DNA of 64,000 nt from Psammoneis japonica (GCA_008632985.1 QPGO01000125.1:62001-126000), one strand, 5' to 3'. Counted from the stretch's first letter, positions 32,301 through 59,607 are shown. The notes: generated by a model not told the origin, from the letters alone. Program-made: numbers and translations.

Positions 32301-35300
32301 TTGCACACATCTGACCAACATCTCACACATGCCTCGCACAGATTTTGCACATGTCTTGCACACATCTCTCACACATTTTGCAAACATCTTGCGCATGTGT
32401 CTGGCACACATCTCACAAACATCTCACACGTGTCTTGCGCACATCTCTCACACATCTTGCAAACACCTCGTGCATGTCTTGCACACATCTTTTTCACATC
32501 TGGCACACATCTTGTGTGCATTTCACACAAAGTCTGCAGGAAATCAGGTTTTCAAGCAAAAAACAGAGAGTCTGTGTGAGTTTCAATCATTTGCAACACC
32601 AGCGGCACAGCCGTGCACACTTTTTCTATGCAAGCTTGTGCGCTTTTGACACAACTTTGCACAAATCAAAGTTGTGCCACAGTTTCAAAAATGCACATCT
32701 GGGTGATTTTAGAATTCTTGCGAGACTTCCAGTGCAAATTCTGCACAAAAAAACAAAACCCGGGTGTGCATTTTGAAAGTTGTGCCACACATTTTGAAAA
32801 ATGTGTGTGCGGGTTCTTTCACATGCAGAAGTCCAGGAGTGCATTCCTGCACAGCACAAAAGCTGGGACATTTTCAATTGAGCACATCCGGGTCTTTGCA
32901 CAACTTTTTTTTCTCACACATTTTTTGTGTCAAAAGTTGTGTCTAGAAATGTCTTTTCTGTGAGGTGGTGTTGGCAGCAAATTTGTCTTGTCCAACAGAT
33001 TTTGTGCTGCCAGGTGCAACTCACATCAATTTTGACATGCAGGTGGCAAACATGGCAATTTCCTGCAGACCCACACATCTTGCAAACAGCACCTCACACA
33101 CATGTGGCGCACATCTTGCAAACACATTGCACATGTCTTGCACACATCTCTCACACACATCTCACAAACACCTCCTCACACACATGTTGCAAAGACGTCA
33201 CACATGTTTGGCACACATCTTGCACACAACTCATGCACACTTGCAAACATCTTGAACACATCTCAAAATCACCTCACCAGCAATGCTGAAACATGCATTT
33301 TTGGTGATGCACAACTCAGCTTTTGCTGAAACATGCAGCAAAGGCAAGATGTCGTTCATTTCAGCAGATTGCCCGGATGGTGTTGAGCACATTTTGCACA
33401 CATCTTGCACACACCTCATTCACATCTCATGCACATTTTGCACACCTCTTCCAAATGCCTGAAACATCTCATGCGCACCTTGTGCACACCTTGTGCACCA
33501 CATCCAACAAAAACTTTGCACAACTGGCGCACATCTTGTGTGCGCTTTGCTCGCACATGTCTTGCAAGCACCTCACACCTCACACACACACACTGCACAC
33601 ATCTTGTGCACATCTTGCAAGCACCTCACACAGGTTTTGCACACATCTCATTCACACCTCACACAGCATCTTGCAAATGCCTTGCATGCATCTTGCACAG
33701 ATTGCACAACATCTCACACACACCTTTCATGCATCTCTCACATGTCCTGCACACATCTCACAAACACTTCACAGGTGTCTTGCGCACATCTCACAAACCC
33801 CTCACACATGTGCATCTTGCACATGTCTCATGCACATCTCCGACACATCTTGCAAACACCTCACACACTTCTCATGCACATCTCCCACACATCTTGCAAA
33901 CACTTCATGTGTGTCTCATGCACATCTTGCACACATTTTGCAAACACGTCGCACACTGCTGCTGCTGCTGACAGCATGACATTGCAAGAGAAAGAAAGAG
34001 CAACAGCATCCCATCCAGGGAGTGCTGAGGCTTTAAGGCTGCATGGGCACAGGAGGCTGTGCTTTTCAAGTCTCATGACAATGGGCTCACAAAGCCAGCA
34101 AGCCTTCAAAGCAGCCGCCAGCTTGACATTGATCAGAGCTTGCATCATTTTTGTTGGCTGCAGAGCAGCCGCACACTCTTGGGGGCATGCTGCCTGCAGT
34201 GGCTCCACACCCATTGCAGACATGGAGAACATTGCATCACTCAGGTCATCCCTGTGGTTGTTGTGTGTGGCATGATCAGCACCAGCGTGCCCGGCCCAAA
34301 TGTGCATGTGCAAACCCCCCGGCGCTGTGTTTCTGCCAGACAAAATCACAAAACACAGTTGACAACATGAGCTTTGTTTGCAGCAATCCATGGGATCAGC
34401 ACATGAGCTGATGCAGCAGTGAGGACAAGCCAACACCTTGTTGACAAGAGCAAGCAGTGATGATGGCACAACCAAGGCAAACTTGAGAACCGCCGCAGAG
34501 GGCCTGCAATCTTGGGAACACAACATCATGCGCGTGCACGGTCACAAGAGACTGCCCCAAACAGGGATCTCAAAAATGCCTTGAGCACATTTTGCACACA
34601 TCTTGAAAACACCTCACACATGTCTCATGCAGATCTCAGAGACACCTCATGCACATCTCACACATGTCTCATGCACACCTCAAAACCACCTCACAAACAT
34701 GACCCACACACCTCACGCACACTTGCCTCATCTTGAAAACACCTGACACATCTTGAGCACATCCAGCACACATCTTGCCTGCATCTTCTTGCAAATGCAT
34801 CATGTGCATGATCCTGCAAGCATCATGCAAACATCTTGTGTTTCTCTCAAGCACCTCATGCAATTCTTGTGCACATCTTGAACACAGACCACACACATGT
34901 TGCACAAATCATGCAAACAACTCACACATGTCTTGCACAAATCTCACAAACACCTTGCACAAATCTCGCACACATCTCACCACATCTCACACATCCACAC
35001 ACCTGCACATGCATCTTGCAAACACCCCACACACATCAAGCACGTCTTTCACAACTCTTGCAAACAAATCACACCCATCTTGCACACATCTTGCAACAAC
35101 ATCACACACCTGTTTTTTCACTTGTCTCAGACACATCACTCTCAAAGACAGATCACACACATCTCACACACACATTGCACACATCTTGCAAACACCTCAT
35201 GCATGTCTTGCACACATCTCACAAGCAACACCTCACACACATGTTGCACACATGATCTTGCAAACACCTGACACATGTCTTGCACACATCTCACAAACAC

Positions 35301-37300
35301 CTCGCGTGCATCACACAAACATGTGTTGCGATGTCTTGCACACACTTGACACACACACCTTGCACACAATTTGGGCACGCATCTTGTGCACATCTCACAA
35401 CCATCTCACAGCCATCTCACACATGTTTGGTGCACACCTCATGCACATCTTGCACACACCATGCAAACACCTCCCACACATCTCTCACACACATCTTGCA
35501 AACACCTCACACACATCATGAAAATGTGCTGCACACATCTCTTGCACACACTTGGCACACATCTTGCACACAGCTTGTGCACAACTCAAGGGCGTGTTTT
35601 TCAAATGTCTTGCACACATGTCTCACAACCACCTCGCACATGTCTGGCACACACCTTGTGCAAATCTTGTGTGCATCTTGCAAACACCTCACACCCATGA
35701 TTTTGTGCAGATCTTGGGCACATCTCAATCACATCTTGCAGACACTTTGCACAAGTCACACATGCACTCAAGTGGTGTCATGTTGAATCAAGTTGCCTTT
35801 GAACTTTTTGTTGGTGCCCCAGTGTGCAAAGTTCAAACATCTTGCACACATCTTGTGCAGCCCTTGCAAACACCTCACATGCAGCTCGCACACATCTTGC
35901 AAACACCTTGCGCATGATGTCTTGCACACATCTGGTGCACACATCTCAGAGTTGTGCAGGTCTCACACATGCCTCACACACAGCTCACAAACACCTTGCA
36001 AGCCTCTCCCCCATGCACCTTGGGCACATCTTGTGCTCATCTTGGGAATGACATCTCACAAGTGCCTTGCATGCATGCCCAGCACATGTCATCTTGAGCA
36101 CCTCTGACAGACACATCACACACATGTTGTGCACACCTTGCACCCATCTGACAAACACATCACATGCATGATCTTGCAAACACTGTGCAAACATCTTGCA
36201 CACATCTCTCAAACACTGCACACAAGCCTTTCGCACATCTCATGTGCACCCTGCACACAGATCAGGCACATGTTGTGCACATCTCACAAACACCCCCCCC
36301 ACACACAGCGTGTGGTGTGCACACCCCAGCTCTGCCTGTGTTTCTGCAAGACAAAATCACACAAAGCACAGTTGTGGTTGACAACAAGCACACAAGACAA
36401 TGACTCTGATTGAGTGAACAAACACTGATGCAGCAGCGAGGATGAGCCAACACCTTGTTGACAAGAGCAAGTCATGATGATGATGCAACCAGTGCAAACC
36501 AGGCCCTCTCTGTGACACAGAGGGCCTGCAATCTTGAGTGCACTGCGTTGTCATGCATGGCTGCAAGTGACTGCCCCAAAGAGGGACAGACCACTGCATC
36601 AGAGTTCACCCAGCAAAAGCAGAGTCTGTGCGTCGATCACGATGCATCTGCGCTGTTGGCAAAACCCTTGCCCCCCTTTGCAGCCTGCACCACTTCTGTC
36701 AGCAAGTCCACCTTGAGCCAACAGGTCTTCACCCCAACTGTCCTCTGAAGCACCCTGCTGATGTGGGAGGAACTCAATTTGCTCCAAGCTCCACACCTCC
36801 CAACGAACCCTCTGCGGGCCAGCAGCGCATTTCCATTGGTGTTGCAGCCCCCCTCCTTTTCCTCCTCATCCTGCACCTGGTTTGTCTGACCCTCCCAATC
36901 AAGTTGTGAAGGCTCACCTCAGCAGCACTCAGGACAAGATTCTTGGACCTGGTCTTTGAATGGCTCCTCCATCATCTCTGCTGTCAACCCCCCTCGTCCT
37001 TCTCCCTTTTGCCCTTGACCACCTTTGCAGCATTGGCCATCACTTTCATGTCTTCTTCTGTGGCCATTCTTGTGATGCTTCCTCCTCCATCCTGTCACCA
37101 CCTCCCAAGCCACCCTGGAAAGATCCTGCCGACTTTTCAAACTCCGACACCTCCTCCTTCACAGCTCTCGTCAATTTTCTCTCTCCTCTGCTCGACGAAC
37201 CTTGTTGCCCAAGCCAATGTCACCTGGTGGCAACTCTCTCCTGACCACTTCAGCTCCTCCTGTCACACCTCTGCTCCCAATCATGGGCCACCCAACTTTT
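23350..37300. other. TpA- and CpG-depleted block B (degenerate TE-like relics plus satellite)
   Basis: TA nearly absent for ~14 kb (none found by eye between ~34040 and ~37295). CG also scarce. Dense Cys/His-rich ORFs in all frames, almost all ending in TGA. Confidence 0.9.
27780..36300. repeat. Complex satellite of CACACATCTTGCAAACACCT-like monomers with a ~2.8-3.1 kb higher-order duplication
   Basis: Unique anchors recur: TCTCTAGAAACAGCACAAAGAAC at ~28051 and ~31157, and GTCTAGAAATGTC at ~30149 and ~32941. Internal ~240 bp tandem at 29160-29640. A further dispersed pair lies at ~34320-34520 and ~36335-36540. Confidence 0.9.
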
Positions 37301-38988: not shown

Positions 38989-39792
38989 TCAGCCAATATC
39001 CTGGTCAGATTCTGTTTCTCGAAGCAACCTGTCTCGACAACAAGGACATTCGTCCGACTTCTTCAGCCACAGCACTATGCAATCCCGGTGGAAAACATGC
39101 TGGCACTTTGAGACGTTAGAAATCGCAAGTTGTTCATCTTCCTGAAACGATTGAAGACATATTGGGCATGCCATAGCAGCAGTGGTCCCCGTATCACCGA
39201 ATAACTCTATGGTTCGACTGTGCGTGGGTTGCTGAATATTGACGCTAGAGTCATCGTTGCCCCTTAGATTGCTCGATCCACTAGTCTGACACATATCAAT
39301 GCTACCATCGGTGTTGGAAGATGTATCTGCTATTGTTGATAGGGCCTTTTGTCAAAGTAAACGCAAGAATCGGTTACTTCCTCTTCCGTTACAAAAAAGA
39401 TGCTGGCGACATAGCATACAGTACCTACCTTGAACTCCAGACAAGAGTCAATCATTGATTGTCTTTGCTGCTCCGAACTCGCTGCTTCGCCATTCTCGGA
39501 TGATTCTTCTGGTTGCTGCTGTTGGCGGCCAAGGACACCGAACTTTCTAAGTATGATGAAAAGTAGCAGGAGAAAAATCAAAGATAGCAAGACCAAGCCC
39601 TGTCAAAGATTAGCCGGGAATATTGATGTGAGTAAAGAAAGTGCTATGTGAGAATTCTTATTATGAAGCACTCACACAGATGATGGCTGCGCCATACTTG
39701 GCACCGCCTCGGCTGCCGGTGTTTTGATCGGACCCCCAACGAAGGCTTCGGATATCAGCGATGTTGTTGTTACCGGTACTCGGCAGAGACAT
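38989..39792 (-). CDS. TM + RING-H2 E3 ubiquitin ligase (ATL-like), tandem paralog 1, 3 exons
   Basis: CPICLQSF...CQHVFHRDCIVLWL...CPCCR, with an upstream TM exon LLSLIFLLLLFIILRK. Confidence 0.85.
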
Positions 39793-40691: not shown

Positions 40692-41521
40692 TTAGCTACT
40701 CTCTTGGTTAGATTCTATTTCTCGAAGCAACTTGTCTCGACAACAGGGACATTCGTCAGACTTTCTCAGCCACAAAACTATGCAATCGCGGTGAAAGGCA
40801 TGATGGCATTTTGACACGTTAGAAATGGCAACTTGCTCGTCGTCCATGAACGATTGAAGACAGATTGGGCATGTTAGAGCGTCAGTGGTCCTGTTGTCTC
40901 CGAACAAATCTATGCTTCGATCGTGAATGGGGTGTTGAACACTGACTTCAGTGTTTTCGTTGTCATTTACGTTGCTTGAACCAGTAGTGCGCAGCGTATC
41001 GACGGTATCACCAGAGGTGGACGATGTATCTGTTCCTATTGAGATAATCTTGTGTCATCAAATTGAAAGGTCAAAGTAGATGCAAGCGTGTCAGTTCCTG
41101 CATTAGCACGGAAGATAATAACTACACAGCATGTAGTACCTTCGACTCAAGACATGAATCAATCATGGCTTGTCTGTGTGGCTCCGAATCTGTTACTTGG
41201 TCATTCTCGTCTGAATCTGCTGGCTGTTGCTGTTGACAATCAAGTAAATCGAACTTTTTAAGAATAGCGAAAAGCAGCACTAGAAAAATCAATGATAGTA
41301 AAACAAGACACTGTTTAGGAGCGAGTGTTCAAATAATGGAGATATGGTTGAGAAAAAGGGGTATGCAGGAATTTTCATTTGTAAAGTAGCGACTCGTGTA
41401 TGGATTCACTCACAAATATCATTGCTGAGCCGTTCTTTGCATCGCCGCGGGGATCAGAATCGGACCCCAAGCGAAGTCCCCGAGTAATGTTGGCGACGCT
41501 GCTCTTGCGGAGGAAAGACAT
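40692..41521 (-). CDS. TM + RING-H2 E3 ligase, tandem paralog 2, 3 exons
   Basis: CPICLQSF...CHHAFHRDCIVLWL...CPCCR. Exon structure and sequence closely parallel paralog 1. Confidence 0.85.
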
Positions 41522-42199
41522 TTTTATTTCTACTGCTAATGATGGCATTGGACTATCGAGGAATGTGAGTCGAGAATATTCTTTGACTCAAAGCTCGGGA
41601 ATTCCGAACCCCACATGCTAACAACCACTATCAAGTTTGGTTCGTGTCGCGAAAGCAAAAAATGTGATCGCGAACTGAACAGCGGCACGATTGCGGAGGA
41701 GGGGCAATAGAATGCTATTGGTCTTTTTAATCAGGTTTGGTTAGTTTCATTCTTTGCCGATGACGTGTCGTGTGTCGTCGTCTGATCGGGCAAATTTTTT
41801 GGGCTAGTTGGTGACCGTTTGAATTTAACGGCGAGCGAAGCGAGCCTCAGCGCACAAAAGTAACCCGGATGTTAAATCTTGAGTTTGTTGAAAGCACCGC
41901 GACATCATTGCGACGGTTGTCGATCGACCATGGCACCTTTGGTACAAGTTACAGAACACAACATCAACATTATTCCCGTTTCTTTTTTCATTCTTAACAA
42001 TATTTCCACAATCTATCCGACAAGGTTGGTCACATTTTGTGTCAATGAGAATTGTGGATTTGTGGTTTTGTCAAAAAGTGTGCCAGAAAATCGATTGTGC
42101 GATTCGAGACAGGCTAGCACTATTTCGATTGTCAATCACGCTTTCACCAATTTTCTCACTTATTTTTTGTTTTTCATTAATCTTTGTTTTTTACAGAAA

Positions 42200-45100
42200 A
42201 TTTAAGGGCATGGAATTGTTTTTGTGGCAATCTACAATCTGCTGCACACCACCTTCAGGAAGAGCAGCATTGCTGGAGGCACATGTGGTTGGCACGTTGG
42301 GGGACAAGGCATCATGTGATGGCAGTGCTCTGGTGGAAATACAGGTGGCACTTGTGATGGAAAGGCAAATGGCTGTGGGAGGAAGTGACCCGCGGGAGGG
42401 GGTGGAATCGTTGCAAGCCGGGACATCCTGCTGGCTGCAACAGCGGCGTGGCATCGACTGATTCCCAGGCAGCACGTGCAGGCAAGCTTCCTCCACTCAC
42501 ACTTTGTCAGCAACTCCTGGTGAGTGGAGAGAGGGAATGTGCTCTCATTGGTCATTCTCGTCCTCTCTGGCCTCTCGATTCTACCACCTTTTTACCGGCG
42601 ATGCTCTGCGGATGCGGCAGCTAGAGCAGATTGATGAGAAAACACACAGGGCCCTGCCATGTCACCCGTGTGACAAATTTACCTACGAGCTTGCTCTTGT
42701 CTGACAGAACTTGACGAACAATGGGTTGCCTTGGTGGTGTGCCCCACCGCATCAAGATTCGTTGTCGTCGTCAACAATGAAAATGCAAGAAGGCCACTTG
42801 GTCGGATTGCCCTGCTTTTTGAAGAGACTGCTGCAGACCGTGCCTGGAATGTGCTCATCCACCTTTTTTCTACATTTGCTGTGGCTGAGGTGCCGGAAAC
42901 GATTCAACTCACTTGCGGTGTCTGTTCAAATGACATTTCTCCGTTCAAAATTCCGCTTCGTGGGCCAAAAAGCACAGGATTTTTTTCACGGAATGACAAC
43001 AATGTTGAAAGCATTGACAACACCATGGCTGATGACTCATGTTGTTTTACATCGCAAAGCAGAAACTGAGATTGCAGGCTTTTGCATTTTCCCTGCTCTC
43101 GTCGCAAGCGCCGTGCACCAAATGACTTGAGTTTCGTGTGGCCGTGCGGAGCCAGACAGATCTCGCCACATCAACCAATCCGGAGAGCAACAATCCAGCA
43201 GAGATGTCACTGCAATCGGCATCGCTCACTGACGCGGTGAGCGTCTGGCAGAGCTGAGCAATGTTTGTGGTGCGAAAGCTGGAATTGTTTGTGATGCGAA
43301 AGCCAGAATCCAGCGCGGCTTCGAACGGGGCTTTCTCTCCAGCAGCCCCCCCCTGACTCACCTCGAAAGAAACTCTTTCCACTTCCCATGAGGAGTCATG
43401 GAAATGCGAGGCCATCCAGCACCTTTCCTGGCACCACCATTGCTGCCACGTTTGCTGGCCATGGTGAAGAGTGCGGCCGCAATGGCATTTGATGTGCTGT
43501 TTTGTTGGCCTTTTCTCTTTTAAAATTTGGATGCAACAGACACACATCGCATGCACGCAACAGTGCTGCTTTTCTAGAGATTGGCCATCCACAAAAGAGA
43601 ATCAATTTGTCATTGCGATTTTTCCAGAGGTCTAGAAAACTGGCAGTGCAGTCATTTTTCATCATCCGCGGAAAAATTGCGCGACACCCCCCAAAAATGC
43701 AGTGCCCAAAGCACAACTTTTGACCACACGTTCGCGCAGAACTCGCCAAGTCGAAAAACCACGAAAACACGCAGGTTTCTACGCAAATCCAGCACAAAAC
43801 GAATGGCAAAGCTCTGCCTCTTCCTCTTCACACACCGGGAAAAACACCTGCACATTTGATCACAAGGTCATTGCTGCATTCTTCTTTTCATCATTCAACT
43901 GAACCATTGTTGCCATGACATCGCAGACCTCCTTGTCATCTGCCGGCACTGAGATTGAGCAGCCGGAAACAATTGAATTTGCAACGGCTGCAGTTCAACA
44001 TCCTCAAGGGGAGGCAATGCGGAGAAAGAAGAATCACCGGGGTTCAACTGTCAGTGTGGTGCTGCCGTCACCAGATGAGCGCGACATGATGCCAGTTCGT
44101 CTTGGGGTGGAAGAGTGGACTCTTGTGAAACAGAAACAGCCAAAAGCTGGATCAGAAAAGAAAAAACAGTTCAGTCAACACGACTGCATTGTGGACCGGC
44201 CTGCCAGCAGCAACGGTCACACCAGCTCCTCTTGTCGACCTGGAGGCTCAATTTATCCTCATCACATTTTCTTCTCAAAAGTGAAATTGAGAGATTGCTG
44301 GAGCTTGAAGAATTTGAGTTTTGTGACAGAGAGAAGAAGAAGCAAATTTGCTGTCGGGAAAAGGCACTTGATAAATTCGACACACGAGAAACGAATCCCA
44401 GTGAGGATCCATTGATGTTTCTCCCTCCTGAGCCGGCACGAGATTGGAGCATTGGCGCCGGCATGCCGCTTGACAGATTCAAGGTTGTTTTGAAGCAGAG
44501 GCCCCCAGAGCCAGCTCATCCAGCGTCCCTGCTTTCATCAGATGATGAGTTGTCTGTGGATGATGAAGACATGCTGGATCATCATGAATCTCTGGAGGAT
44601 TGGAAGTCAGCGCCACGGGAAATCGATTGTGCAGTGCTTGACTTGCTCGTGGTTGCAAAGAGCATCGCGAAAGATGATGCCAGTGGTGGGGGGAGCCCTT
44701 CTTCAAATAAAAGGCAGCACACATCCTCTACAAGCCATGACGACCCTTTGCCAGATTGGTGCAAGAAACTGAGCGACGTTCGCGTTGCTCTCTTACAACC
44801 TGTGGTGAAGAGCACAAACAATGACTGTCTTCTCTTGGATGGCAAGCCCACTGTTGTAACCAACTTCTCTGTGTCGATTGGGGAAGACCCTGAGAGCTTC
44901 AAATTGGGTCACCTGCGACAGAGCGTTCTGAATCAGGCTGCTTCGCAAGCGAAGTGTCGTGGTAGACTTGGAATCAACTCCGCTCTGTTCTGCCAGACCT
45001 CAAAGGTTGACAAGCATGTGACAAGGCTCAACAGCACGGACCAAATGTGGAACTTTCTGGAGAACAAGTGCAGTGGTAAAAAGAACAACTGCAAGTGCCA

Positions 45101-47600
45101 ACTTCCATGCACACGTCGTTTGCCGTTTGCGATGGCATCATCTCTCACCATGACATTTTCTCATTGCTGCATTTTGTGATCTGTGGTTTTGAAGATGTGT
45201 CTGTGTTCCTTGCCCTTGGCTCAAAGCACCACAATGACGTCGACTGCGATGAGGAACAGTCGCAAATTGCCGATCCGTCGACACATGAGGACTCTCACCG
45301 GAGTGGCAACAACCAAGCTCTGTCTTCACCGGCAAAGACAGCATTCGACCCTGGTGCCAGCAACCGAAGACGTGGAAGGGCAGCTGAGAGCTCGCATTCT
45401 GTGAGCAGGGAGTGGGTTTTCAAACATCTCTGCATGGATGAGAACTCACCATGTCATCATGGATTCACCAATGAAATGCTTGCTGTGACGACGAGTTGTT
45501 TCAACGGCAAGAGGTTCCCACCGGAAAATCAACTCCCTTGGGAAAAATGGCCGTTGGGATGCGGTGAGCACCCAGAGATGACACAAATGCCTGCACATGA
45601 TGCACCGCACATGCAGAAGCAGATTGGTTCTGCCAAGCTAAAGAGGGGACAATGCCCTCTTGACGAAGCCACGGGGCTTCCTCCTTCTGGTTTAAAAACG
45701 ACACCAACAAAAGCTGCCGGCAGTGGCACAATCTTCTCTCCAACAACTGTCAACCCACTTGATCAACCAATCAGTGCCGGCCAGGGGATGGCAATTTTGG
45801 TGCAGTCGGATTGTCACTCGAAGCATGGGCTGGGAGCTGCAAGTGTCCCTGGAAGTTCGGTGGACCAATCTGCCGCCAAGCCAAAAACCAAGCCAGTGTT
45901 CACATTTCGTCGGAAGGTCGCAGATGAACAACATGTGAGTGAGACAGTTCTCATTGGGACGGAATGTGTGGATCAAAATGGAGCCTTGATTGACGCGGTG
46001 AAACACGTGGCCAATTCCAACAAAAGAGCATTTCATCGTCGTCCGGGGACAGAGATTCAGTTCATGCTTCGTTTGAGCAACAAAGATCCAATGGCATTTA
46101 CACTGGATGCTGCTCGCACGTGTAAGATTGCTGACCTTTTGGAGAGCACAGCAGGGGAAGCGTCACCATGTTTGTTTGATGTCGTCGAGATGGCGGAGGA
46201 CGTCGAGGAGGATCTAGAAGACGCAAGCTTTGATCAGCCGAGCTTGCAGAGATCAGTCAGAAATGCTTGTGCTGAGAATCCATTTGTTCACCCACTAGAA
46301 TTGAACAGTTTTCTACAGACATGTTGCACGCACCATTCTTCCCCAGCTGCTTCATCCTCATCCTCCTCTTCCGGAGGATCCTGGAAAAACGGAACGTTGC
46401 AGTGTCGAAAGATGTTGCGTGCCTTTGCTGGAGTGACGCTCATGAGAGCCTCCTGGTGGGCAGCCTCACAATCTGTTTTTGCCAGAACACGATTTCTCCT
46501 CAATGATGATTTGCATGAACAAAAGAAGTGCTCAATTGGGTTCAGATCAGGTGAGTGCCTTGCCGCAAACAGGATCTCAGCACCTGCGTTCCGCATGATC
46601 TCTGCAACCTCGGGATCGTGATGCTGAATCGCATTGTCCAAAATGACGAGAGAGTTTGGTTCCTGCTTGTCAAATTCACCAAGCTGAGGCACCACACACT
46701 CTGTCAACCATTCCTTAAACCGTTCTGTGTCAACAGTCCCTCTTGTGGGATCATTGTCATCTTTTCCTCGCTCTCGCAAAACAATGTCACAAGGTTCCAA
46801 GACAAAGCCATTGCAATTGGCGGCACCCATCAATGTGCGCCGCGTTTCCGCAGCATCAAATGCACGTGTAAATTCAGCTTTTTTGCCTTTTAATGCCCAG
46901 ATTCGACGACGACGGGCGCTCAAGCGGTCTTTTGCTGATTCGTCCAAAAACAAGGCCATCTCTGGGTTGGAAAGCAGGATCTCGAGAGTGTTTTGGCAGT
47001 CATCGTGCTCTTCTTGGCAACGTTGGGCTGCAATTTCCGTGACAACTTTGAGAGAGCAGTGCATTCGCTCTGTCAGAAGTCTCCACATTGACGTTGTCGC
47101 ACGTCTCACACCCGCAATTCTTTCGCACTCGTCCCGCATTTCGTCCAGATGGAACCCAGGGTGATCCTCAACGATGGATCTGACAATGTCAACCTGGTGG
47201 CATTCCCATGAGTGTGCTTCATACATTGTGTTTCACTTTCGCTTGCTCCTTTTCTTCAATTGCTCTTTTCTCCGTCGTGTCGCTTCGGGAACTTCCCCGA
47301 ATTGCTGACAATGGAGACACCAACGATGCAAAGTGGTTTCACTGATCTTCACAATGCTCGCACCTGTCACCTCTTCCAGAATGCAATCAAGAGGCTTGTC
47401 CTCAAATGGCCCAACCCTTGCAATCAAATGGCCAACAAGTGTCTCTTCCAAACGAAGCTGTCCGAGTGGACTTGCATGATTGCACCCTGCTGCTTCAACT
47501 TGAGGAATGAGCTCCGAGAAGACAAGGACCGCGACGATCAAGGCAAGAACGACTTCCAGCAACATCTTTTCGGTTTGCTGCAGCTTTTCTTCCAACGTTG
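42200..47600. other. TpA-depleted block C with CpG largely retained
   Basis: TA is rare while CG remains common (e.g. 46800-47150). TA returns at ~47610, still inside the element. Confidence 0.85.
43915..46280 (+). pseudogene. Degenerate second (cargo) gene inside the Tc1/mariner element, function unknown
   Basis: Overlapping long + strand ORFs (43915-44415, 44115-45179, 45095 onward) with protein-like composition and an acidic C-terminus (EMAEDVEEDLED). Convergent with the transposase; almost no Tyr. Confidence 0.5.
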
Positions 47601-47646
47601 CAATGTGGAATAACATGTGACGCAATGCTGCCATACAACGCGACAC
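46288..47646 (-). pseudogene. DD34E transposase (Tc1/IS630 type) interrupted by one in-frame TGA at 47233-47235
   Basis: HTH-like ISETTLHRW..., then PGFHLDE, FLDES, ILDNA...H and HSPDLNPIE (34 residues between the second D and the E). ORFs 47233..47646 and 46288..47226 are in the same frame. Confidence 0.9.
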
Positions 47647-48114
47647 GGTTTGCTACGTTTGGTTGTAAAGGTTGCAATGAGATGGACCTGCCGCTTGATA
47701 AAGGAAAAATGTACTAGACTCACGTAGAATCCTACGTGTTTTTGTCGTTTTTCGACTTAGTGATTTTCGCGGGAGGCTGGCGCAAAAGTTGTGCGTTAGG
47801 CAACTCTATTTTTGGGGGGTGTCGCGCGATTTTTTCCGCGGATGATGAAAATGACTGTATCGCAATATGGTACAGGTCAACCCGAGGTTACCCTAAGTAA
47901 TATCCGTTGAGAAGGGTTGTGCGAACACGAACCACCAACTAGCACGAAAAGCTTGCCTCTGATCGCGAAGGAGCAGGTGAGGTAAGATAGAGTAGATGTT
48001 GTTAAAATAACTATCGTCCCAATCCAAAAAGTTGCTATGCGACAGCATTAATCCAACACATCGCTTTCCAATTATATCAACTGCATTCCCTACGATGCAC
48101 GAATAACTCTTGGT

Positions 48115-48959
48115 CTAATCTTGATCTTGTACCTTTATTCTGTCATCTGTCGCAAGGAATTTCGCTCGACAGACTGGGCATTCACTGTGACATTGCAACC
48201 ATTCGAGGATGCATTTGCGGTGAAACAAATGCTTGCAACCCGACCGCGCTGAATATGCAACATCGTCTTCTCGAAGGAAAACTTCTAGGCAAATGTGGCA
48301 GGGCGTAGCAACGTCCGTCGTGTCAATCTCATTATTCATTTCTTCGTCACCGCTATTTTCCATCGAAGCACACGATTTTTGAGGCTTCAATGACGAAATT
48401 TTAGGAACAATATCGTCTGCAGTCAGTTCGGTCAAGTTTGTATCAGTTGTTGATGACTGATCAGCTTCGATGTCTCCAAATTTCTGCGCAAAACATCAGT
48501 CGCACATCGGAAGAGAAGATATTAATATCATACATAGTCTCAAGTCTCCACGCACCTTTACTACCAAACTTTCGTCAATCTGCCGTTGTCTATTTTCTTG
48601 TCTGCGCTGAGCTTGGGCTTCGTTGAACTCGTCTTGACGGCGTCTCCGGGCTTCCGCAATTGAACTTAGATCGGCATTGAATAAACCATCGAGAGGGTGC
48701 AAATATCCAAGTTTTCTCCAGAGAAGAGGCAAGAATACGAGAAGGCCAAAGGCCAATATGACTCCAACCTAGGAAAATGTTGAAAAAGAAAAATCAAAGC
48801 AGCTAAGTTAGATGCAGTTTACAATGAGAAAAATTTTCGTGTCGAGCGGCTACTACTCACAACAATGTTTACTGTACTGATTCCACCACCACTACCTCCA
48901 GCGCTTGTGCTGTCGCTTAAGAACCGATCCAACAATTGGACTTCGATTGTACTCGCCAT
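48115..48959 (-). CDS. TM + RING-H2 E3 ligase, tandem paralog 3, 3 exons
   Basis: CHICLEVF...CKHLFHRKCILEWL...CPVCR, with TM exon LAFGLLVFLPLLWRK...IDESLVVK. Confidence 0.85.
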
Positions 48960-49314: not shown

Positions 49315-50111
49315 TTATGCGTGTTCTTCATCTGGGAGCAAGGTACCTCGACAGAGTGGGCATTCCTCGTGTTTCTGCAGCCACCCTACGATGCAGTCGT
49401 GGTGAAAGCAATGCTGGCACCCCGAAACGCTCGAAAGCACAATCTCTTCGTCACTCAACATTTTTTCCAAGCAAATAGAACACGTCGTGGCGGTGCTGAT
49501 ATCTCTTGTATCGCAATCTATTGGAGTTGCCTCTGGAGTTGGAGTGGGTGTTGTCGTGGCACCTATTTCGATATCATCTGCAGAGTCATCAGAGGACGTG
49601 TCACTATGATCTTCAGCTACGACCTTTGAACGCACCAAAAAGGAATAGTCAGAGACAACGAAGATACTGGAGAAGATATCGTACGAATCAAGATGGCGTT
49701 ACGAACCTTCTTGACTAAGAACTGGTCAACCTCTCTTGGCTTTGCATCTGCGGGAGTTTGGGAAGGCATTTGAACCGGAGCTCTGTGTCTTTGCCTTTGT
49801 ACATGAGCTTGCGCTTCAACTAAATTACGATTCAGCTTTCGAAGATATCGTCTGAGTAACACTGGTAACAAGAGGATGAGAGCGGCGAACAAAACAAGAC
49901 CGACCTGACGGAGAATGAATACAAGTGTAGAAAGAAACGAGAAGGTAAGGCGTTAGGCAGCATGCCACACGCAGTAGCCAGCCAAAAACAGTCTAGACGT
50001 TATGAAATGCAGCTGCGATCAAGATACAAGAGTCTGGTAAGGCCACGAACTTACAACGATGCCGACAACCTGTTCCGTCCCAACGTCGTTGGTCGTATCT
50101 GATGCTCCCAT
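49315..50111 (-). CDS. TM + RING-H2 E3 ligase, tandem paralog 4, 3 exons
   Basis: CSICLEKM...CQHCFHHDCIVGWL...CPLCR, with TM exon LFAALILLLPVLLRRY...VDQFLVKK. Confidence 0.85.
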
Positions 50112-50459: not shown

Positions 50460-52870
50460 GGAGGCCTTTCCTCCGACGACCTGCCTCTCGCAGATCCCAT
50501 GCATCCCACGACTTTCTAGAGAAGCACAAGAGCCACAGTGCAGTTCCCACTGAAGTGCACAATGCTGTTGATGCAGTCATGACTGCCGCTTGCCACAGCT
50601 TGAAAGATTGTGCTGCTGGTTCTGACTCTTGCAAGACTTCAAGAATCAACAGCATGGCAGAGTGCCCAGGCACCCGATGGGACAAGGTGGACGACAGTCG
50701 AAAGCGAGCACAGGAAATTGAGGAGAGCAAGGATCTTTTCAAAGTTTGACCAAGGAAGAAATGGAGTGACCGTGTGGTGTGCGATCAAGCTCAGCTTTGT
50801 GTGCTTGGATTTTGCCACTCAGTCAAAAGCAAGAAGAGGATCTTGTGTCGATGTGCAGAGTCTCAATGGAGTTCACAAACTGAAGGATCCAACAATGGGA
50901 AAAGTTGTCACTCCTCCAGCTTGAGCATGGAATGATGCAACTCTTGAGAGCCAATTTGATGCATTTCAAAAATCGGGCGTGTGTCAGACGTGGCTGCTGC
51001 GCACCACACCCCCTGCGCGCATGACCCATTTGAACATTCTTTTTGCCTTGCTGAAGACTGGACTGGAGGAGTGCATGAAATCATTGAAGAAAGTGTTGAG
51101 CAGTCTAGGTGTTGAAAAGCAAACAGAAAATTGCACTTGCAACTCACACGCTCAAATGAGAGAGGATGAAGATGATGGGCCCGGTGCTGACAACATCTTT
51201 TTGTTGCCAGGAACAAAGCACAAACAACTTGTCCGAGCATCATGCTGCCCGGCAAAGGAGGAGCCAATGCTCTGCACTGAGGTTGAAGGCCATCTACCAA
51301 AGCCAATCCCTTGGAAATGAACACACAGGAACTGTCAGAGTTGTGAAGTCAAAAAGATGAAGCTGCAAGAGTGCAAAGCACTCGCCAAGCATGACATTGA
51401 GATCACCACAAAGGAGTGGTTGCCACCAAGAGCTGGGACAAATGCAAAAGGGAAACAGAACACACAGACAGAACCTGACAGATGTCAAGCTCCCAGTGAA
51501 AGTGGGCGTCTCATGCAGCGCATTGACACACATGCCTTTGCCCTTGAGGAGCCACTGATCTTAGAGATGACTTCTCCACAATGTGCAATCTTTGAGCCCC
51601 CCTGACCAACAATTGCTCTGTGGATGCCCACCCCATCCTCTGCACATTTGCTTCATTGCACTTGCCAAGGACAATTGCAGTGAAGCACAATGGCGTGGAC
51701 AAGAAGTGGTGAGCAAACAAATGCAACGTCTGGCACTTTTTTGGCAAAATGATGTCAAAAGGGAAGAAGAACAACTGCGTCTTCCACAATGCAAGCCTTC
51801 TAGAGATTGTTCAGCATTGCAAATGCCAACTCAAGTGCAGCAGTGTTGACTTGATGTGAGTGACAGTGTGGACCAACAAGTGTGGGCCTCAATGCAAGTG
51901 CAGCCAAAACTTTTTGAGAAATGCAAGATTTGCAAGCACTGTGAAAGGGGTTGCAGCAAAACTCGCCAGCTTGCCCAGAAATGCCATTTCAAAGGTGCAT
52001 GGAATGCAGCAGGGAAGGTGGTGAAGTGCTGCATGTGGCATGTGGAGCTCCGCAGAGTGAGATTGCCCACAGCATTTGAGTGCTTCAAAGCGATGTGACA
52101 AGAGCTCGGGAAATGCCAAACTTGTGACCAACTGGAACGCCCTTGAAGCATCCAAGCATCCTGATGTCCTTGCAAAGAAAACATTCATGGTGTCCAGAAG
52201 ATTTCACGAACATGCAACTGAAAAGAAAGAGCAGTTTGAGCTGTTGCAAAATGAACTCAAGAACATTGCATTTGCTGACCATGAAAATGCACCTCAAGGA
52301 ACCCGAGTCAAGGACACCCAGAAACTTCATCAAGTGCCCAGCTTTCTCAATCTGAAGCCACAGGACCCAAGCATGTGGAAGATCCTTGCAGCAAAAATGC
52401 CTTGTTCATGCCTTTGTTGTCAAAAGAAAGTGCAAGAGACCTGTCTGATCAAGCATGTCACAGATTCAAAGGCGCATGCTGGGTGAGGGAACAAATCGAC
52501 AACTCAGCAAAAACAGCAGAATTGCAAGGGCAGTTCAAGACATGCTTGCCACAACTTGCTGAGGTGTTTGGCATGAGTGACGTCACCAAGAAAATGATCC
52601 AGGACAAGCTCAGACTGCTTGGATTCAGGCCTCAAACACAAGGTTGCACAATGTCTTGTTGGCCACATCTCTGCTCCGGAAATGCAGATGATTTGCACCT
52701 GCTGCTTGCTGAAAATTGCACTGTTGTGGATGCTGACATGCACAATGATGAGAACAAAGACATGGTTTGGATGGTGTTGGAGGCAAAGGAGGCAGATGCC
52801 ATGGTGCAGACAACAAACTTGATGTCATTGATTGTTTTTTTCAGCGGGTCAAATGAGCGGTGCTGAGGGC
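50460..52870 (+). mobile_element. Degenerate DNA-transposon transposase relic, Sola2-like
   Basis: VTVWTNKCGPQCKCSQNF (~51860-51915) and AQKCHFKGAWNAAGKVVK (~51970-52030) resemble the WxDxCxxQYK and HGKGxxDGxGxxVK motifs. A Cys-rich region lies upstream. Many stops and frameshifts; superfamily assignment is from memory. Confidence 0.5.
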
Positions 52871-55199
52871 ACCCCAGGTGTTTTTTTTTGCACTCATGAC
52901 TCAAAGCTAAAAACAAAAACAAAATTTCACTGAAACGTTGCCCTCTTCAACTCCTGATTGTGGTGGGTGTCTGGGTGGTCAACGCATGAACTCACAATGA
53001 AGAGTGCTCCCAGCCCATCCTTTGTTGGCCCTCAGAGTCATGGCAGTGAGTGGGTGTGGTGTGCAAAATTTTGGCAGATGGACAACCAGCATGGATTTGT
53101 TGATTCTTTCAGCTGCGCATGTGACATTCAGTGAATTCAATTTTGCATGCCGATGGTCAACAGTCATTTCTCAATGACTTTGGAAGTTGTTGACAATGCT
53201 GTGATGATCATTGTCATGTGTTGCAAGCTCTGTCAAGTTGTCCCAGTCTTTCAAAGAATTCCCCAAACCCTCCATGTGTCAACTGCAGTGCTGTTGGGTC
53301 CCTGGGGGTTGTTCACATCAGGAAAGAAAATTTCCCAGGCTGCTGTTTGCATTCAAGATTGGAGCCGCAACCTGTGGTGAAGACTTGGTTTGACAGGTCA
53401 TTGCTGGGCGCTGCTCAAAGAGCATGATGGTGTGCAATCTCATCACAGCAATGCTCCCCTGTGTGCTCATCTTGAGCTTGCAGGTCTTCTTCAGCATGTT
53501 TTTGTTTCCTCCTTGTGTGGCTCCATTGATTGGCCAACCAGCTCTTGTCTTTCCTTCTTGGGGTGCACTGCAGGCTTCTTCTTGCTGTCAAAGCTGATCT
53601 CTTCCCAGCTGCTCTGTCAATGCTGTTGCTTTTGCACAATTGCCAGAATTGAAGTGTTGTCCCATGCAGAAGCTGGCATTCTCTTGGGTTGCTTTTGCAT
53701 GCTGCAAAGGCTTCAGCTTGCCCCACTGCTTGCTTTCTGTTCAGCCGCCTTGGCCAAGTGCGTGTGTCTCTTTTCTCTGGCTCTCACAACAACAGATGCA
53801 TGAACTCCAGTGCCATGTCACACCTGACTGGCAACAAACAACTGGTCAGTCATCACAGCTGAACTGACTTTTCTGTCACCTGCTCCTTTGCTGCTCTCAC
53901 ACAGAGCTGGTGTGCTTGTGTCAACTCCCGCTGCTGCCATTGCAGCAGAGACATGACCTGCAAAGACTCAACTCTGGCTGCCAAATGAATGCCGGCAGCT
54001 TTGATGCAGCAAATGAAGTTCCAGCTGGATTGGACCAATGGACAGCATGCCTCCACTTCATTGTTGCAGAAAAGCTCAACGCAATGCCACTCTGCCACCT
54101 GCCAACCCATTGCTTCACCAGCATTGTGCCCGCCACTTTCAGCAGTCTCATCTGACAAAGAGCTGACATCATCTGCATTTGGAGCCATCAAATTCTCCTT
54201 GATGTCTTGAGTCAGCTTCCTGATTTCTTGATCTAAGTGGCTCAACCTGGGCCCTCGATCATCAGCCCAGAGACAAAAAAAAAAACTCCAGTTTCTTGCA
54301 AAGCTTCAGCCAAACAATCAAGTCCTCACCTGCGTTCCAGATTGGTGCATCAAAAAAGGCTTTCAAAGTCGTCGCGACTATTTTCCCGAAAAAGTTCCTG
54401 AAAGAATTCATCCATGTCGCTGCACTCTCCCGCCTCAGTCCAGATTTTCGCGACTCGGTTCATTGTCGCGCAAAATAATTTAAGGGCCTCACTGTCCCCC
54501 GCCAACCGCCCACTCTCTAGGATGCCATCAAGAGCAGTGAGCCGGTCCTCATCCATTTGCAAGTCCTCGGGGGGATCAGAACTTAGAAATGCAGCTTGAA
54601 GAGGAACAGCCGACCCATCAATTTCCTCAAACTTCAGCCTGTGATCCTCCAGACTCTGCATCTTCAAGAATTTAAAGAAAAGAGAACCCTTGTCTCGGCT
54701 GTGTGATTTCAGCATTTTCTTTGCCCAATGAAGAGGCAAAGAGGAAAGAGGATTGGGCTCAGCAAATGAAAATGCAGACCTGCATGAAGTGGCAAAGTGG
54801 CAAGCATTCCATGCAGTCTTGCTTTCTTTCTTTCCCTGCACTCCTTCCTGTTCTGACTTCCTTGTTCAGACTTCTCCATTTCAACAATGAAAGCCAACCC
54901 CCTTGAACTTCACCTGAGTGGACATGATGGCAACCATCAGCTGAACTGTGAGCAAGCTGCAATGCAGTGGTGGGATTGACGGTGCTGTTGTTTTGTGCTC
55001 TCATGTTTGTTCTCTTTGTTCATGGTTGGGGAGCGGGGATCAATCCCTTGGGTTTGTTGGTCATCTCATTTGGATGGGAGTGATTTTGAGTTGGAATTTG
55101 GACAAGGGTGCAAATCGTGTGCATGTTTGGTCATGCCGGTGTGCTCGTGCATCTTGTCCAACAGAGAAATTTGTCATTGGCAACATGATTGCATGTGCT

Positions 55200-57500
55200 G
55201 CATCCACACACCAAAAAAGTCACCCAGCTCCTCCACAAGCTCCCTGAGCTTGCTTTGTGTCTTCTGTGTGGTCTTTTTTGAACTCTCAATCTCCAGCTCA
55301 TGAGTGTCTTTGTTGAGCTGCTCACTTTGTCCCTGACATTGGAGCCACTGCTCCTGGTGGTGTTCTGGACAGTGATTGCTGGCTGTCACTCTCTGCCCTC
55401 CTCTTCTGTGGCCTTGGCAGAGCTCCAAAACAACTGTGCTGGAACAGCCGGTGCATCCACTCTTTGGGTTTGGTTGGATTTGCAAAATTTCAAACATGCT
55501 GTGGAGAGAATCAGGCACCCAGAGGCAGTGCGCTCCTCTGATGGGGGTGTTGGAGTTGACAGCTGCTTTGGAGTGAGCCAAGCACACTTGTCTCTTTTGC
55601 TTGTTCACCTCTCACCCACCAGCCTCATCTTTTTTCTCTCACCACCACTGTTCTTGTTTTCATTTGTGGTTGCAGCTCCACATTTTGAGCCACAATTTTC
55701 AGCACCATTTCCCCTTGGATGTGTCTCATCATCTTTGTTGGGCATGGATTTGTGGCTGAATCTGCCATCTGCCATTGTTCTTTTTGAGCAGTTTCTGGGT
55801 GAGCATGCTCTTTGTGCTCCTCCAGCACCAGGAGTGGACCATTTTGAAAAATGTCTTGATGGTGCATTGTCATTCCCACACAGAAAGCAGACATCCATCA
55901 AGTTGTGAGCCACACTTTCATGACAGCAAGTGGCGGGGCTCCTCTGCCACAAAACAAAACAAAAGAGCTTGTCCCTTTGCACAATCTTTTGTTGACATTG
56001 GTGACAGATGTTCTCAAACAGAGCAACTGGCATTTCCATCACCATCACACTTGCCACTCTTGTCAGTTTCATTGGTTCAGATTTTGTGTTTGGCGCGGTG
56101 CTCCTTCTGCTTTCACACAAACCACATGACTTGCACTGCAACTCTGACCCCATCTGTCCTGTGAAAACCACCTCTGACCCCAATTTCCCAACACTCTTTC
56201 ATGTGAGTCATCAATCGATTGACCTCATGCACATCAAGCACGGGGGATGACACATGAAAACCATGCCACCCAACACCATGTCAACTTTTCCATTGATTCC
56301 CATGGCTCACATCATCCGACTCTGCCAACGAATGACCGCTGTGTGAGGACAATCCCTCCTCATGTGCCCAACTTTGTTGTGCTTCCAGCACACATCTTCT
56401 TCTTGTCATTCTGTGCAAAACTCATGCCCTCAGGTTTCTTGTTGGTCCCATGCCTGTCCAACACCTGCAATGCCTCCTCAGCTGAATTGGGGTGCATGTC
56501 AACCCCAGCCAGCATGAGCTGCCAATGTGGGTCTTTCAAGATGCATTGACAATCCTTGGCAGCATCCACTGGCTTCACTGCTGATGACTTGTTCCTCTCT
56601 TTGCTCCAGACATCATCAACATCCTTGTTGAACCCATCTTCTTTCTTGGCCATTTTTTCTGGGATGATCCTGCCATTTCAACCTTGCTCACAAACTGGCT
56701 GCAATGGCCTTGAAAAAGTGTTTCTCCTTTGTCTTGACAAATGAGCACCAACTGCTTCCAAGCCTCAACCCCCACCAGGACATGTGTTCTCATTTGCGTT
56801 GGCTTGAGAATGCTCAGTGGTGCCACCACATCCAACTCCTTTGTGGCTCTTGCAAACTCCACCACTCTTTCAAGCTTGTCATGATTGGCCTTCGTGCATT
56901 GCCCCACAATCATGTTCAATGCCTTTGCCTTCTGCGTCTTGTAGATTGAGCTCTGCTTCACATGGTGACCACACTTTTTGCCCCAGATTGCCTTGTCTTT
57001 CTCCAATGTGGTGTCTCCCAATGCATGATCCAGCTCTCCCAGCATGCTCTCCTGCCTCACAGATGCCAGTGCTTGCATCTCTGGCCTGAAGGTTCTTCTG
57101 ATGTGCTCGCCACCAGCATCATGCACCCACTTCTTCAGCTCTTTTGCCCATCTTTTCCCGGACTTGCATTGGAGTTCCATGGCTTGCCAACTGATGCAAA
57201 CTCTGTCTTGCTGACCCTGAGATGACCTTGCCCCACCCTTTTTTAGCAGACCCTCAACAGCTTCTTTAACAGCAAGGCCCTCCAGAGACCATTTCTTTCC
57301 CTCATCCAGCCAGCTTGCTTGCTGCAATGTGCCAACATGAGGCACACCTTTGGTTTCTTGTTGACCTCCTGGCCCTCTCCTTTTGTTTCCTGTTGACTCC
57401 CCAGCCCTTGTCTGCAGATTCCTTTTTGCTTTCCAGCCCTCACACTCTGTGGATTTCTCTCAACTTCCCAGCCCTTGTTCTGTGGATTCCTCTTGACTTC
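55200..57500 (-). mobile_element. Degenerate Ty1/copia (CoDi-like) LTR retrotransposon gag(-pol) relic
   Basis: KAKALNMIVGQCTKANHDKLE...DVVAPLSILK and LAGVDMHPNSAEEALQVLDRH match the diatom copia gag patterns (LIxGQCxxxMxxKLE...DxxxLLxxIK; GxDxYPxxxxxAxxxLxxY). No LTRs identified. Confidence 0.65.
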
Positions 57501-59607
57501 TTAGCCCTCAAATGACGCCACTTTTTTGAATGTTGTGCCATGACTTTTTGGCTTCTGCGTTGGAGCTTTTTGTGGCTTGTCAACTGGCGCACATTTGGCA
57601 TCACCATCTCCTGCTCTCTGTGTGGTTTGCAAACACATTGGCTGATGCCGCTGGCTGTCATTGCTGTGTTGGCTGGGTGCAGAAGCCAAAAAGCAAGCAC
57701 AAGACCTGCAACTCAATCCAAGTTGTGAGTGCAAACTTGCCATGTTGTCTGCAATTGTCAGCATGTCTTACACTGCAACTCTGTCTGTCTGTTCTGCAAA
57801 AACTGCCTCTGACCCCAATGTCCCAACATGATGATGGTGCAGCATGTGACAACCATCATTTTTTTGAGTGTGTGCCATGGCCAGAGAGGTGTGGTTGACA
57901 AGATGCTCTCCTTGGGAGCTGCACTCAGATTGAGCATCAAAATTTGAAAGACTGCAAGAGCAAACCACTCAAGCGAACCTCTGCAAATGCACACACATTT
58001 TCTGGCTCTTGGATGGAAATTGTGAGCCTGACACAGATGATGAAAAATGTGCAGCAGCTTCAGCCCCAATGAGCCCCATGCCCATCTCCATGAACAAGCA
58101 GCAGCAGGGAAAAGGCAGGTGCAAATGTTCTCAATCAAATGATGGCAACACCACATCTGCAGAGTTTGCTGGTGGAAAACCCAGAAAGATGAACACAAAA
58201 GCTCTGAAGGAAAGGCAAGAAGGAGAAGAAGAAAAATTCTTGGAAAAAAGAAGTGCTTAAAAGGAATGACAAGAAGGGCTTGTTGAAGAAACTGCAAGAG
58301 CTTGAAATCAAGCACGAGAAAGAACCATTTTAAAGAAACAGCAAGAGTTTGACAAACAGCAACAGAAGGAGTTGTCAAAATGACAACAAGAGCATGAAGA
58401 TGAGTTTGAGAAAGAAGAGAAGAACAACAAGGACTTGTTGAAGAAATGGCCTGCCAGAGCTTGAAAAGAAGCATGAGAACAATGTGCAGAAAGAACATGA
58501 AAAGTGGCAAGGTCACAAAAAAAAAGAGAAGCAGTGGAAGCAGCAGCAGTGGCAGCAGCAACGGCAGCAGCAACAACCATTGCCATGGCTGTGACAGCAG
58601 GCATCATTTTGCTGAAATGGCAGCTCCAAAAAGAGAAGAAAGCAACACATGGAGGAGTGAAAAATGCTTTCTGAGTTTGAACAACCAGCTGTTCAGTGTG
58701 CAAAGCTGATGACAACAATCAAGGTGGTGAGCTGCCAGGAGGCAAAACAACTGAGCACCAATTTGAGCCAGAATTCAACAAGTTTGTGGAATGGCAGCTC
58801 AAGCAGTTTTTTTGAGCAAGTGCAGAGGCAACAGGAGTCATTTTAAAGAAGGTGTCTTTGCAAGCACATCCAGGTGGTGTTCCCTTGGAGCTCTGGAGAA
58901 ATGCCGCTTTTGCTGGGTGGAAGTGCAGCAGCACTGAAAACACAGATTTTGTGTTTTGTTTTCATTTGGTTTCTTGCACAGGCCCTCAACTCCACCCCCA
59001 TCCCATCTTCTGTGTTTTTTCCATTTAAACTGTGGCACCACAGTCTCCAGATAATGAGGCAGTCTCTGCAACTGGCCCACCTTTTGAAGGCGATCTGTTG
59101 ACAACAAAATTGCACTTGCTCTTTAGACGCAAAGCTCGCCATGACGGCATCTGCCATTGAAATCGCCATTCCTTTGGTCTAAACTGGGAAAATTGTCGAT
59201 TGCACCCCCATTTTTAGCAATCACATCGATCTGTGGATGTCTTTGAGCGCGACACGAATGGCATGGCAAGATTAGATTGAGAGCTGTCGAACGACACAAA
59301 CTCTTCCCAAGGCCACCATCATGAAAGGCGATCCCACACCTTCATGTCGGTTTCTTGCATTCAAAGATCACAGATCTGTCAGGTTCATAGATTTGGGGGG
59401 CTGACGTCGTTATTTCGGCGCAAATATTTTTAGCTTTTATCATAGAAGTAATTGGTTAGGACTATCTCGAACGCTCCAGTGCGTAACTGTCTGTCAAATG
59501 GTGTGAATCAAGCCGCCTTGGATGTGTTTGCTTGCAGCGCCGACTCTTGTTACGTTGCAACGGCCTAACTGCTGTAAAGTAGCATATAAAAATAAGTAAA
59601 AAGAATA

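Follow-up and report, generated by a model that had tools for sequence, protein, structure and literature searches.

The 64,000-nucleotide stretch of the Psammoneis japonica genome analysed here (GCA_008632985.1, QPGO01000125.1:62001-126000; hereafter the window, with positions counted from its first letter) contains a 4.2-kb Tc1-like DNA transposon lying across the edge of a tract from which the dinucleotide TpA (TA) has been largely erased. The changes that gave rise to the tract are specific to TA sites, proceeded from TA as the ancestral state, affected both strands and took place after the transposon had inserted. Very probably, a Tc1 insertion was followed by a local process that converted TpA to TpG or CpA and swept a tract of 5.4 kb.

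A transposon straddling the edge of a TA-poor tract

Two kinds of DNA alternate along the window. In the ordinary kind, which bears genes, TpA stands at 0.5–0.75 of expectation and CpG near 1, and the genes neighbouring the transposon have a normal TA level (0.6–0.7). In the depleted blocks, TpA falls to 0.01–0.2 of its expected level, with a 1.5- to 2.7-fold enrichment of TpG/CpA. The tract considered here (Table 1) comprises 1.4 kb of left flank and the whole element minus its last 247 bp. The ratio of observed to expected TA is 0.14 in the left flank (42240–43648) and 0.08 in the element from 43649 to about 47610 (20 TA in 3,962 bp), and it reaches 1.16 (7 TA in 98 bp) in the flank at 47860–47957, beyond the TA-retaining right tip of the element. 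The edges of the tract thus differ from the ends of the element.

The lowering of CpG in the tract is mild: CpG stands at 0.63–0.70, with 0.70 in the mutated part of the element, compared with 1.51 in the tip. Three more blocks of the window, at 5000–8000, 23500–36500 and 51000–58000, have TA at 0.01–0.05 and CpG at 0.1–0.3 of expectation; these blocks, with their stronger CpG loss, are probably older, the decay of CpG having caught up there. Since CpG stands at 0.63–0.70 in the tract and at 0.1–0.3 in the other blocks, loss of TpA appears to precede loss of CpG, and the slower CpG loss is most simply explained as a separate decay of methylated CpG.

Comparison of the two ends of the element

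The two copies of a transposon's target duplication, like its inverted ends, are identical by mechanism at the time of insertion. The left junction reads ...CTGGCAG TG CAGTCATTTTT, where TG occupies 43647–48 and 43649 is the first base of the element; the right junction reads ...AAAATGACTG TA TCGCAAT, where 47857 is the last base of the element and TA occupies 47858–59. The element is flanked by a 2-bp duplication whose right copy is TA and whose left copy is TG, and both arms begin with CAGTCA. An earlier reading of the sequence alone (the sequence-only reading) had described just these flanks, TG before CAGTCAT on the left and TA after ATGACTG on the right, and both were recovered at these positions. 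An inverted-repeat search matched the arms over 21 nt at 100%, 39 nt at 85% and 65 nt at 77% identity; the terminal inverted repeats differ at 9 places in the outer 78 columns, and similarity extends to about 150 bp.

With both arms read inward, AATAG on the right corresponds to AATGC on the left, CCTAA to CCCAA and TCGCG to TTGCG. All three TAs of the right end within the outer 78 columns (the target copy and two arm sites) are TG, TG and CA on the left, and one CpG of the right arm is TpG on the left, exactly as the sequence-only reading had counted them. The difference between AATAG and AATGC also contains a G/C transversion, and elsewhere in the outer 78 columns there are another transversion and three one-base indels. 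Over the full end alignment (156 columns, 122 identical), 7 of 8 TA sites of the right arm are altered on the left (to TG in 2 cases and to CA in 5), only one TA, at 43780, being common to both arms; no left-arm TA reads TG or CA on the right. By comparison, 23 of about 136 other aligned bases are substituted (Fisher p = 6e-5), and the 7:0 direction of the TA changes departs from symmetry (sign test, p = 0.016). The two arms differ in this way because the tract covers the left arm and excludes the right tip. The same reading had called the asymmetry the strongest directional evidence; the direction stands but the superlative does not, as the target argument concerns one site and the strict arm comparison two more.

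Transposase and loss of tyrosine codons

The transposase is encoded on the minus strand of the right half of the element and matches PF13358 (DDE_3) with E = 1.4e-17 (64.3 bits, with a cut-off of 28.6); the nearest Atlas protein clusters are all DDE_3 or Tc1-like. The catalytic DD34E residues D237 (FLDES), D339 (ILDNA) and E374 (NPIE) are present in the read-through frame with 34 residues between the last two, and D339 and E374 are invariant in the alignment of relatives.

The frame was aligned, with X at the stop, with 11 database relatives of 30–46% identity, and columns with Tyr in at least 40% of the relatives were taken as Tyr-rich. At the 12 such columns, the window copy has Cys 4 times, His 3 times, Phe 3 times and Leu and Arg once each, with Tyr at none, so that 7 of the 12 are Cys or His. 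In a 9-column version, Cys or His occupies 5 of 9 positions in the window copy compared with 4 of 97 in the 11 relatives under the same test (p = 1.4e-4). Each relative carries 6–22 Tyr per frame, compared with a single one in the 455 positions of the window copy. Cys (TGY, where Y is a pyrimidine) or His (CAY) at a Tyr (TAY) column is precisely the outcome of the proposed change of TA to TG or CA. The Cys and His outcomes alternate along the transposase, with no strand runs; together with the 2 TG and 5 CA of the left arm, this alternation indicates that both strands were affected. A local excess of CA at 43500–43999 (62 CA and 33 TG) is uncorrected for multiple windows and carries no conclusion.

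No Pfam match was found in the 2.4-kb left half of the element or in the reading frames of the flank. Open frames at 45080–46621 (plus strand, 513 codons) and 44079–45179 (plus strand, 366 codons) have no family match. Long open frames in the tract are not counted as genes, since TAA and TAG have been erased and only TGA is left as a stop. A protein database search gave 14 matches among 2,180 candidates, the best with at most 51% identity, and no copy of the same family was found there.

Site context of the TA loss

Across the window's four TA-poor blocks, the surviving TAs form a biased set. The context RTAY (R, purine) accounts for 2 of 72 survivors compared with 357 of 1,286 TAs in normal DNA, and YTAR for 37 of 72 compared with 243 of 1,286, the expectation being taken from genic DNA, which is imperfect for transposon DNA. 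GTAC and ATAT have no survivors, compared with 106 and 98 occurrences in normal DNA of similar length, and the best-surviving contexts are CTAG and TTAA. The scarcity of RTAY and abundance of YTAR among the survivors indicate that an A with a pyrimidine on its 3' side is the preferred target. The left target copy lay in the most mutable context, GTAC; the right copy, in GTAT, is equally mutable yet intact, which argues that location relative to the tract, not sequence, decides which sites change.

Host repeat, empty sites and flanks of relatives

The element lies in a multi-copy host repeat. In contigs from three runs, all of one sample, the summed depth of this repeat (left of the element plus 47860–47957) is 430–1,460, compared with about 62 for the single-copy right flank. 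At 42000–42234, the summed depth is about 1,460 and TA is normal; the other copies cease to align at 42234, approximately the start of the tract. The mutated tract as a whole comprises multi-copy host repeat and multi-copy element ends, and also a mid-element part that is single-copy in the contigs (summed depth about 64). In a self-comparison of the window, the element and the host repeat each occurred once only, and the two ends of the host repeat gave no inverted repeat.

Three contigs span the insertion site without the element, two of them with known letters at the target. The first joins 43646 to 47859 via a single C and hence reads CA at the target, which gives the exact ends of the element and its 2-bp duplication. 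The second, in which 37 letters are replaced, likewise has CA at the target, and it has CA at 43641–42 where the window has TG, each being one transition from TA. The TG, CA and TA found at the homologous target would most simply derive from TA. In addition, a contig paralogous to the left flank has TA at 10 of 29 differing sites listed where the window has TG or CA; the reverse case, TA in the window and TG or CA in the paralogue, was not seen among these 29 sites, 13 of which are unrelated changes.

A metagenome search yielded 124 relatives from 598 pattern matches, of which 80 were kept and 17 of these 80 were examined for flanking inverted repeats. Pairs of inverted repeats were found in 7 of the 17; L005 and L021 were discarded as low-complexity, leaving five convincing elements. 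TA is present on both flanks of all four relatives with both ends visible (L006, L010, L011 and L020) and on the single visible flank of L013, indicating that the clade uses TA targets. No pair was found in the other 10 of the 17, most of whose contigs are shorter than 2.7 kb, and the 21-base core common to both arms gave no match in the metagenome scan. The Tyr columns, the empty-site contigs reading CA and the TA flanks of the relatives together support what the sequence-only reading had proposed from the ends, namely that TA was the ancestral state and that mutation occurred in place after insertion.

Table 1. Features of the transposon, its target and the TA-poor tract, with positions in the window (those of relatives in their own contigs)
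Feature	Position	Strand	Evidence
Tc1-like DNA transposon, 4,209 bp	43649–47857	-	inverted ends, DDE_3 match, contigs omitting precisely this span
Left copy of target duplication, now TG, probably TA (context GTAC) at insertion	43647–43648	.	sequence; contig joining 43646 to 47859 via one C
Right copy of target duplication, still TA	47858–47859	.	sequence, contigs
Left terminal and subterminal inverted repeat, within TA-poor tract, 1 TA remaining	43649–43796	+	inverted repeats, arm alignment
Right terminal and subterminal inverted repeat, outside tract, 7 TA plus the TA of the target duplication	47710–47857	-	inverted repeats, arm alignment
Dead transposase frame, 454 codons, read through one TGA at 47235–47233; 1 Tyr in 455 positions	46288–47652	-	Pfam match, alignment
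TA-poor tract, 31 TA in 5,371 bp	42240–47610 (edges approximate)	.	TA positions, observed/expected
Right tip of element, unmutated, 12 TA in 247 bp, TA observed/expected 0.68	47611–47857	.	TA counts
Left part of multi-copy host repeat hosting the element; TA-poor rightward of about 42240	42000–43646	.	contig depth, TA positions
Right tail of the same host repeat, unmutated; other copies diverge beyond about 47957	47860–47957	.	contigs, TA counts
Second reading frames of relatives	L010:1701–3857, L013:2086–3873, L008:1260–2618, L020:2158–2961	convergent with transposase	reading frames

Proposed course of events and alternatives

In the course of events that we propose, a Tc1-type (DD34E) transposon would have inserted at a TA within one copy of a multi-copy repeat, and the TA would have been duplicated in the process. 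TpA would then have changed to TpG or CpA (A:T to G:C on either strand) across the 5.4-kb tract, turning the left TA copy into TG, 6 of 7 further left-arm TAs still held on the right into TG or CA, and conserved Tyr codons of the transposase into Cys and His codons. The tract would have left out the element's right tip, the TA copy next to it and the host-repeat tail, and these would have kept their TAs. Chemically, an enzyme resembling TadA/ADAT2 or ADAR may deaminate adenine in DNA to hypoxanthine, which is read as G; silent chromatin or small RNA, and not the sequence of the element, would determine how far the tract extends, and the process may serve as a defence against mobile DNA.

Contigs nearly identical to the window, at about single-copy depth (64.1 and 63.1 over 45525–47557; 124.1 over 44039–44525), differ from it at 11 listed positions inside the element. 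Three of these, 47635, 47655 and 47713, are TA in the window and TG in the sole contig there; two, at 44474–75, are CA in the window and TG in a contig; four are differences between CpG and TpG/CpA; and the remaining two form one odd TG/GA pair. Almost all the differing sites (44474–44475, 45960, 46035, 46038, 47635, 47655 and 47713) are TpA-derived or CpG. These differences suggest allelic or within-culture divergence through the same two processes, and the sample may hold a version of the locus in which the tract reaches further to the right, in which case the process may be recent or ongoing; alternatively, the near-identical contigs may be close paralogues, and the right tip of the window would then need confirmation. 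As three TAs past the tract edge read TG in the sample, and 44474–75 is CA in one version and TG in another, it is conceivable, albeit doubtful, that the process is active now and guided by chromatin domains, with a TadA/ADAT2-like DNA adenine deaminase that prefers T-A-pyrimidine rewriting silent DNA and the tract edge advancing.

Several points count against an insertion followed by TpA-specific mutation. One strongly conserved Tyr column is Arg (CGC) in the window, which is no single TA step. The CpG differences between the arms, 2 each way (at 43745 and 43763 the left arm has CG and the right arm CA), have no direction, and the remaining 19 substitutions that are neither TA nor CpG and 4 indels, mostly past column 78, cannot be given one. 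The original symmetry of the arms is assumed. The sharpness of the arm asymmetry depends on correct assembly at the right tip, and the sole contig over 47635, 47655 and 47713 does not reproduce the unmutated tip. The empty-site contigs are probably paralogues and not an empty allele. Finally, the contigs represent one sample, and the base differences cited are the best-supported listed subset, 609 further differences lying beyond it.

If the right tip were foreign to this copy, an unmutated 250 bp having been joined onto a mutated copy by assembly, gene conversion or recombination, the arm asymmetry would say nothing about mutation in place. Further copies of the element ends do occur in the sample (summed depth 160–390 at the ends compared with 64 mid-element), a second contig with 74 differing letters covers 46739–47436, and the three tip sites just mentioned are TG and not TA in the contigs. 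The first 68 bases of the tail (47860–47927) have no listed contig piece over them, but the TA flank and the unmutated tail continue into the single-copy flank, where the longest flank contig matches 47928–49000 with no differing letter, and from the empty-site contigs the two flanks are seen to be parts of a single target. Even with the three sites as TG, the other TAs of the tip are untouched among the differences listed, and the evidence from the Tyr codons and from the tract as a whole is independent of the right tip. We therefore consider a foreign tip improbable.

If the element were simply old and decaying neutrally, with arms that had never been identical and a coincidental pattern at TA, the 19 substitutions outside TA and CpG and the 4 indels between the arms would be accounted for. 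This explanation is very unlikely in view of the concentration of changes at TA (7 of 8 compared with 23 of about 136) and their single direction (7:0), and of the step in TA observed/expected from 0.08 to 0.68 within one element that neighbours genes at 0.6–0.7. It is harder still to credit that the tract was TA-poor by origin or by selection, as foreign DNA or under a constraint against TA, and not through mutation in place: the boundary lies within one element, the frame has lost conserved Tyr residues and contains a stop, so that there is no selection for function, and the flank paralogues hold TA where the window has TG or CA. In favour of this view, some genomes do show widespread low TA, and no gene is recognisable in the left half of the element. 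The reversed direction, in which C-to-T changes of the kind made by repeat-induced point mutation (RIP) created TA from CA or TG at the right end and in ordinary DNA, has in its favour only the formal symmetry of a two-copy comparison and is scarcely tenable, as the Tyr columns of distant relatives give the opposite direction, TA in the right tip (0.68) is at gene level with no excess and the flanks of relatives are TA.

Organization of related elements and neighbouring genes

Related metagenomic Tc1-like elements are 3–4 kb long and carry a second long frame convergent with the transposase (Table 1). None of these second frames matches a Pfam family above the cut-off or resembles the left half of the window element; among themselves, the only similar pair is that of L020 and L011. 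The window element is laid out like these 3–4 kb relatives, with a left half that matches none of theirs.

The transposon island is bracketed by tandem small RING-H2 finger genes, at 38992–39351, 40695–41054, 48118–48495 and 49318–49698, all on the minus strand; the two genes tested match zf-RING_2 with E about 1e-12. A neighbouring Rcd1/CNOT9 gene is eukaryotic according to Atlas.

Comparison with known systems and significance

The element resembles members of the IS630-Tc1-mariner group in its DDE_3 domain, DD34E triad, ends starting with CAGT, 2-bp duplication and the TA flanks of its relatives. Unlike typical Tc1/mariner elements, it is 4.2 kb long with a 2.4-kb part without recognisable content, and it has one TG flank and a dead transposase.

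RIP, known from Neurospora and other ascomycetes, changes C to T mainly at CpA and thereby creates TpA. The tract is like the products of RIP in having dense transitions confined to repeated or mobile DNA, dead transposases, a dinucleotide footprint and fairly sharp edges. Chemically, the change is the reverse of RIP: TpA is destroyed here (0.08), G+C rises and the direction is from TA to TG/CA. RIP is confined to duplicated sequence, and here the mutated tract includes multi-copy parts together with the mid-element part that is single-copy in the contigs.

TadA and ADAT2-3 act on tRNA at U33-A34, and ADAR prefers a U 5' of the edited A; the natural substrates of all these enzymes are RNA, the substrate of bacterial TadA having a U-A-C loop. 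The changes described here have in common with those made by TadA/ADAT2-3 and ADAR that A would be read as G after deamination and that T/U is preferred 5' of the edited A, and the preferred T-A-pyrimidine is similar to the U-A-C of that loop. The difference is that RNA is the natural substrate of these enzymes whereas it is DNA that has been changed here.

The closest counterpart is found in Bigelowiella natans, where mutation-accumulation lines acquired de novo changes at TpA only, to TpG or CpA (Mettrop et al., bioRxiv 10.64898/2026.01.13.699255). According to the main text of that preprint, hypermutation struck integrated giant-virus and virophage DNA, an ADAT2-like deaminase is proposed, and TpA-poor genes are enriched in DDE-endonuclease and reverse-transcriptase domains (bioRxiv 10.64898/2026.01.13.699255). 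As far as that account goes, the two cases agree in that only TpA is changed, on either strand, in local tracts of foreign or mobile DNA, with CpA and TpG rising as TpA falls. They differ in several respects: i) the changes in B. natans arose in an experiment, whereas here they are deduced from finished sequence; ii) the erasure is deeper here (TA 0.08, and 0.01–0.03 in other blocks) than in the Bigelowiella viral region described (Rho 0.45); iii) the tract here consists of a transposon and a host-repeat flank and stops inside the element, unlike the Bigelowiella case as presented; and iv) a 3'-pyrimidine preference is seen here, with none reported in the main text of the preprint. In the literature, we found the signature described only in this preprint, supplements aside, and found no description of it for diatoms or as a natural defence against transposons.

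The present case is a clean confirmation with added detail and not a novel phenomenon, as the process has already been described once. To a form of DNA editing of which, so far, a single preprint on an unrelated alga has given an account, it adds a tract that ends inside an element, an empty-site comparison and a 3'-pyrimidine preference. An element that straddles the tract edge is an internal before-and-after control, which dates the erasure of TA to after insertion and shows that the tract is not bounded by the element's own limits. The site-level fingerprint, T-A-pyrimidine on both strands with a separate and slower loss of CpG, could guide the search for the enzyme.

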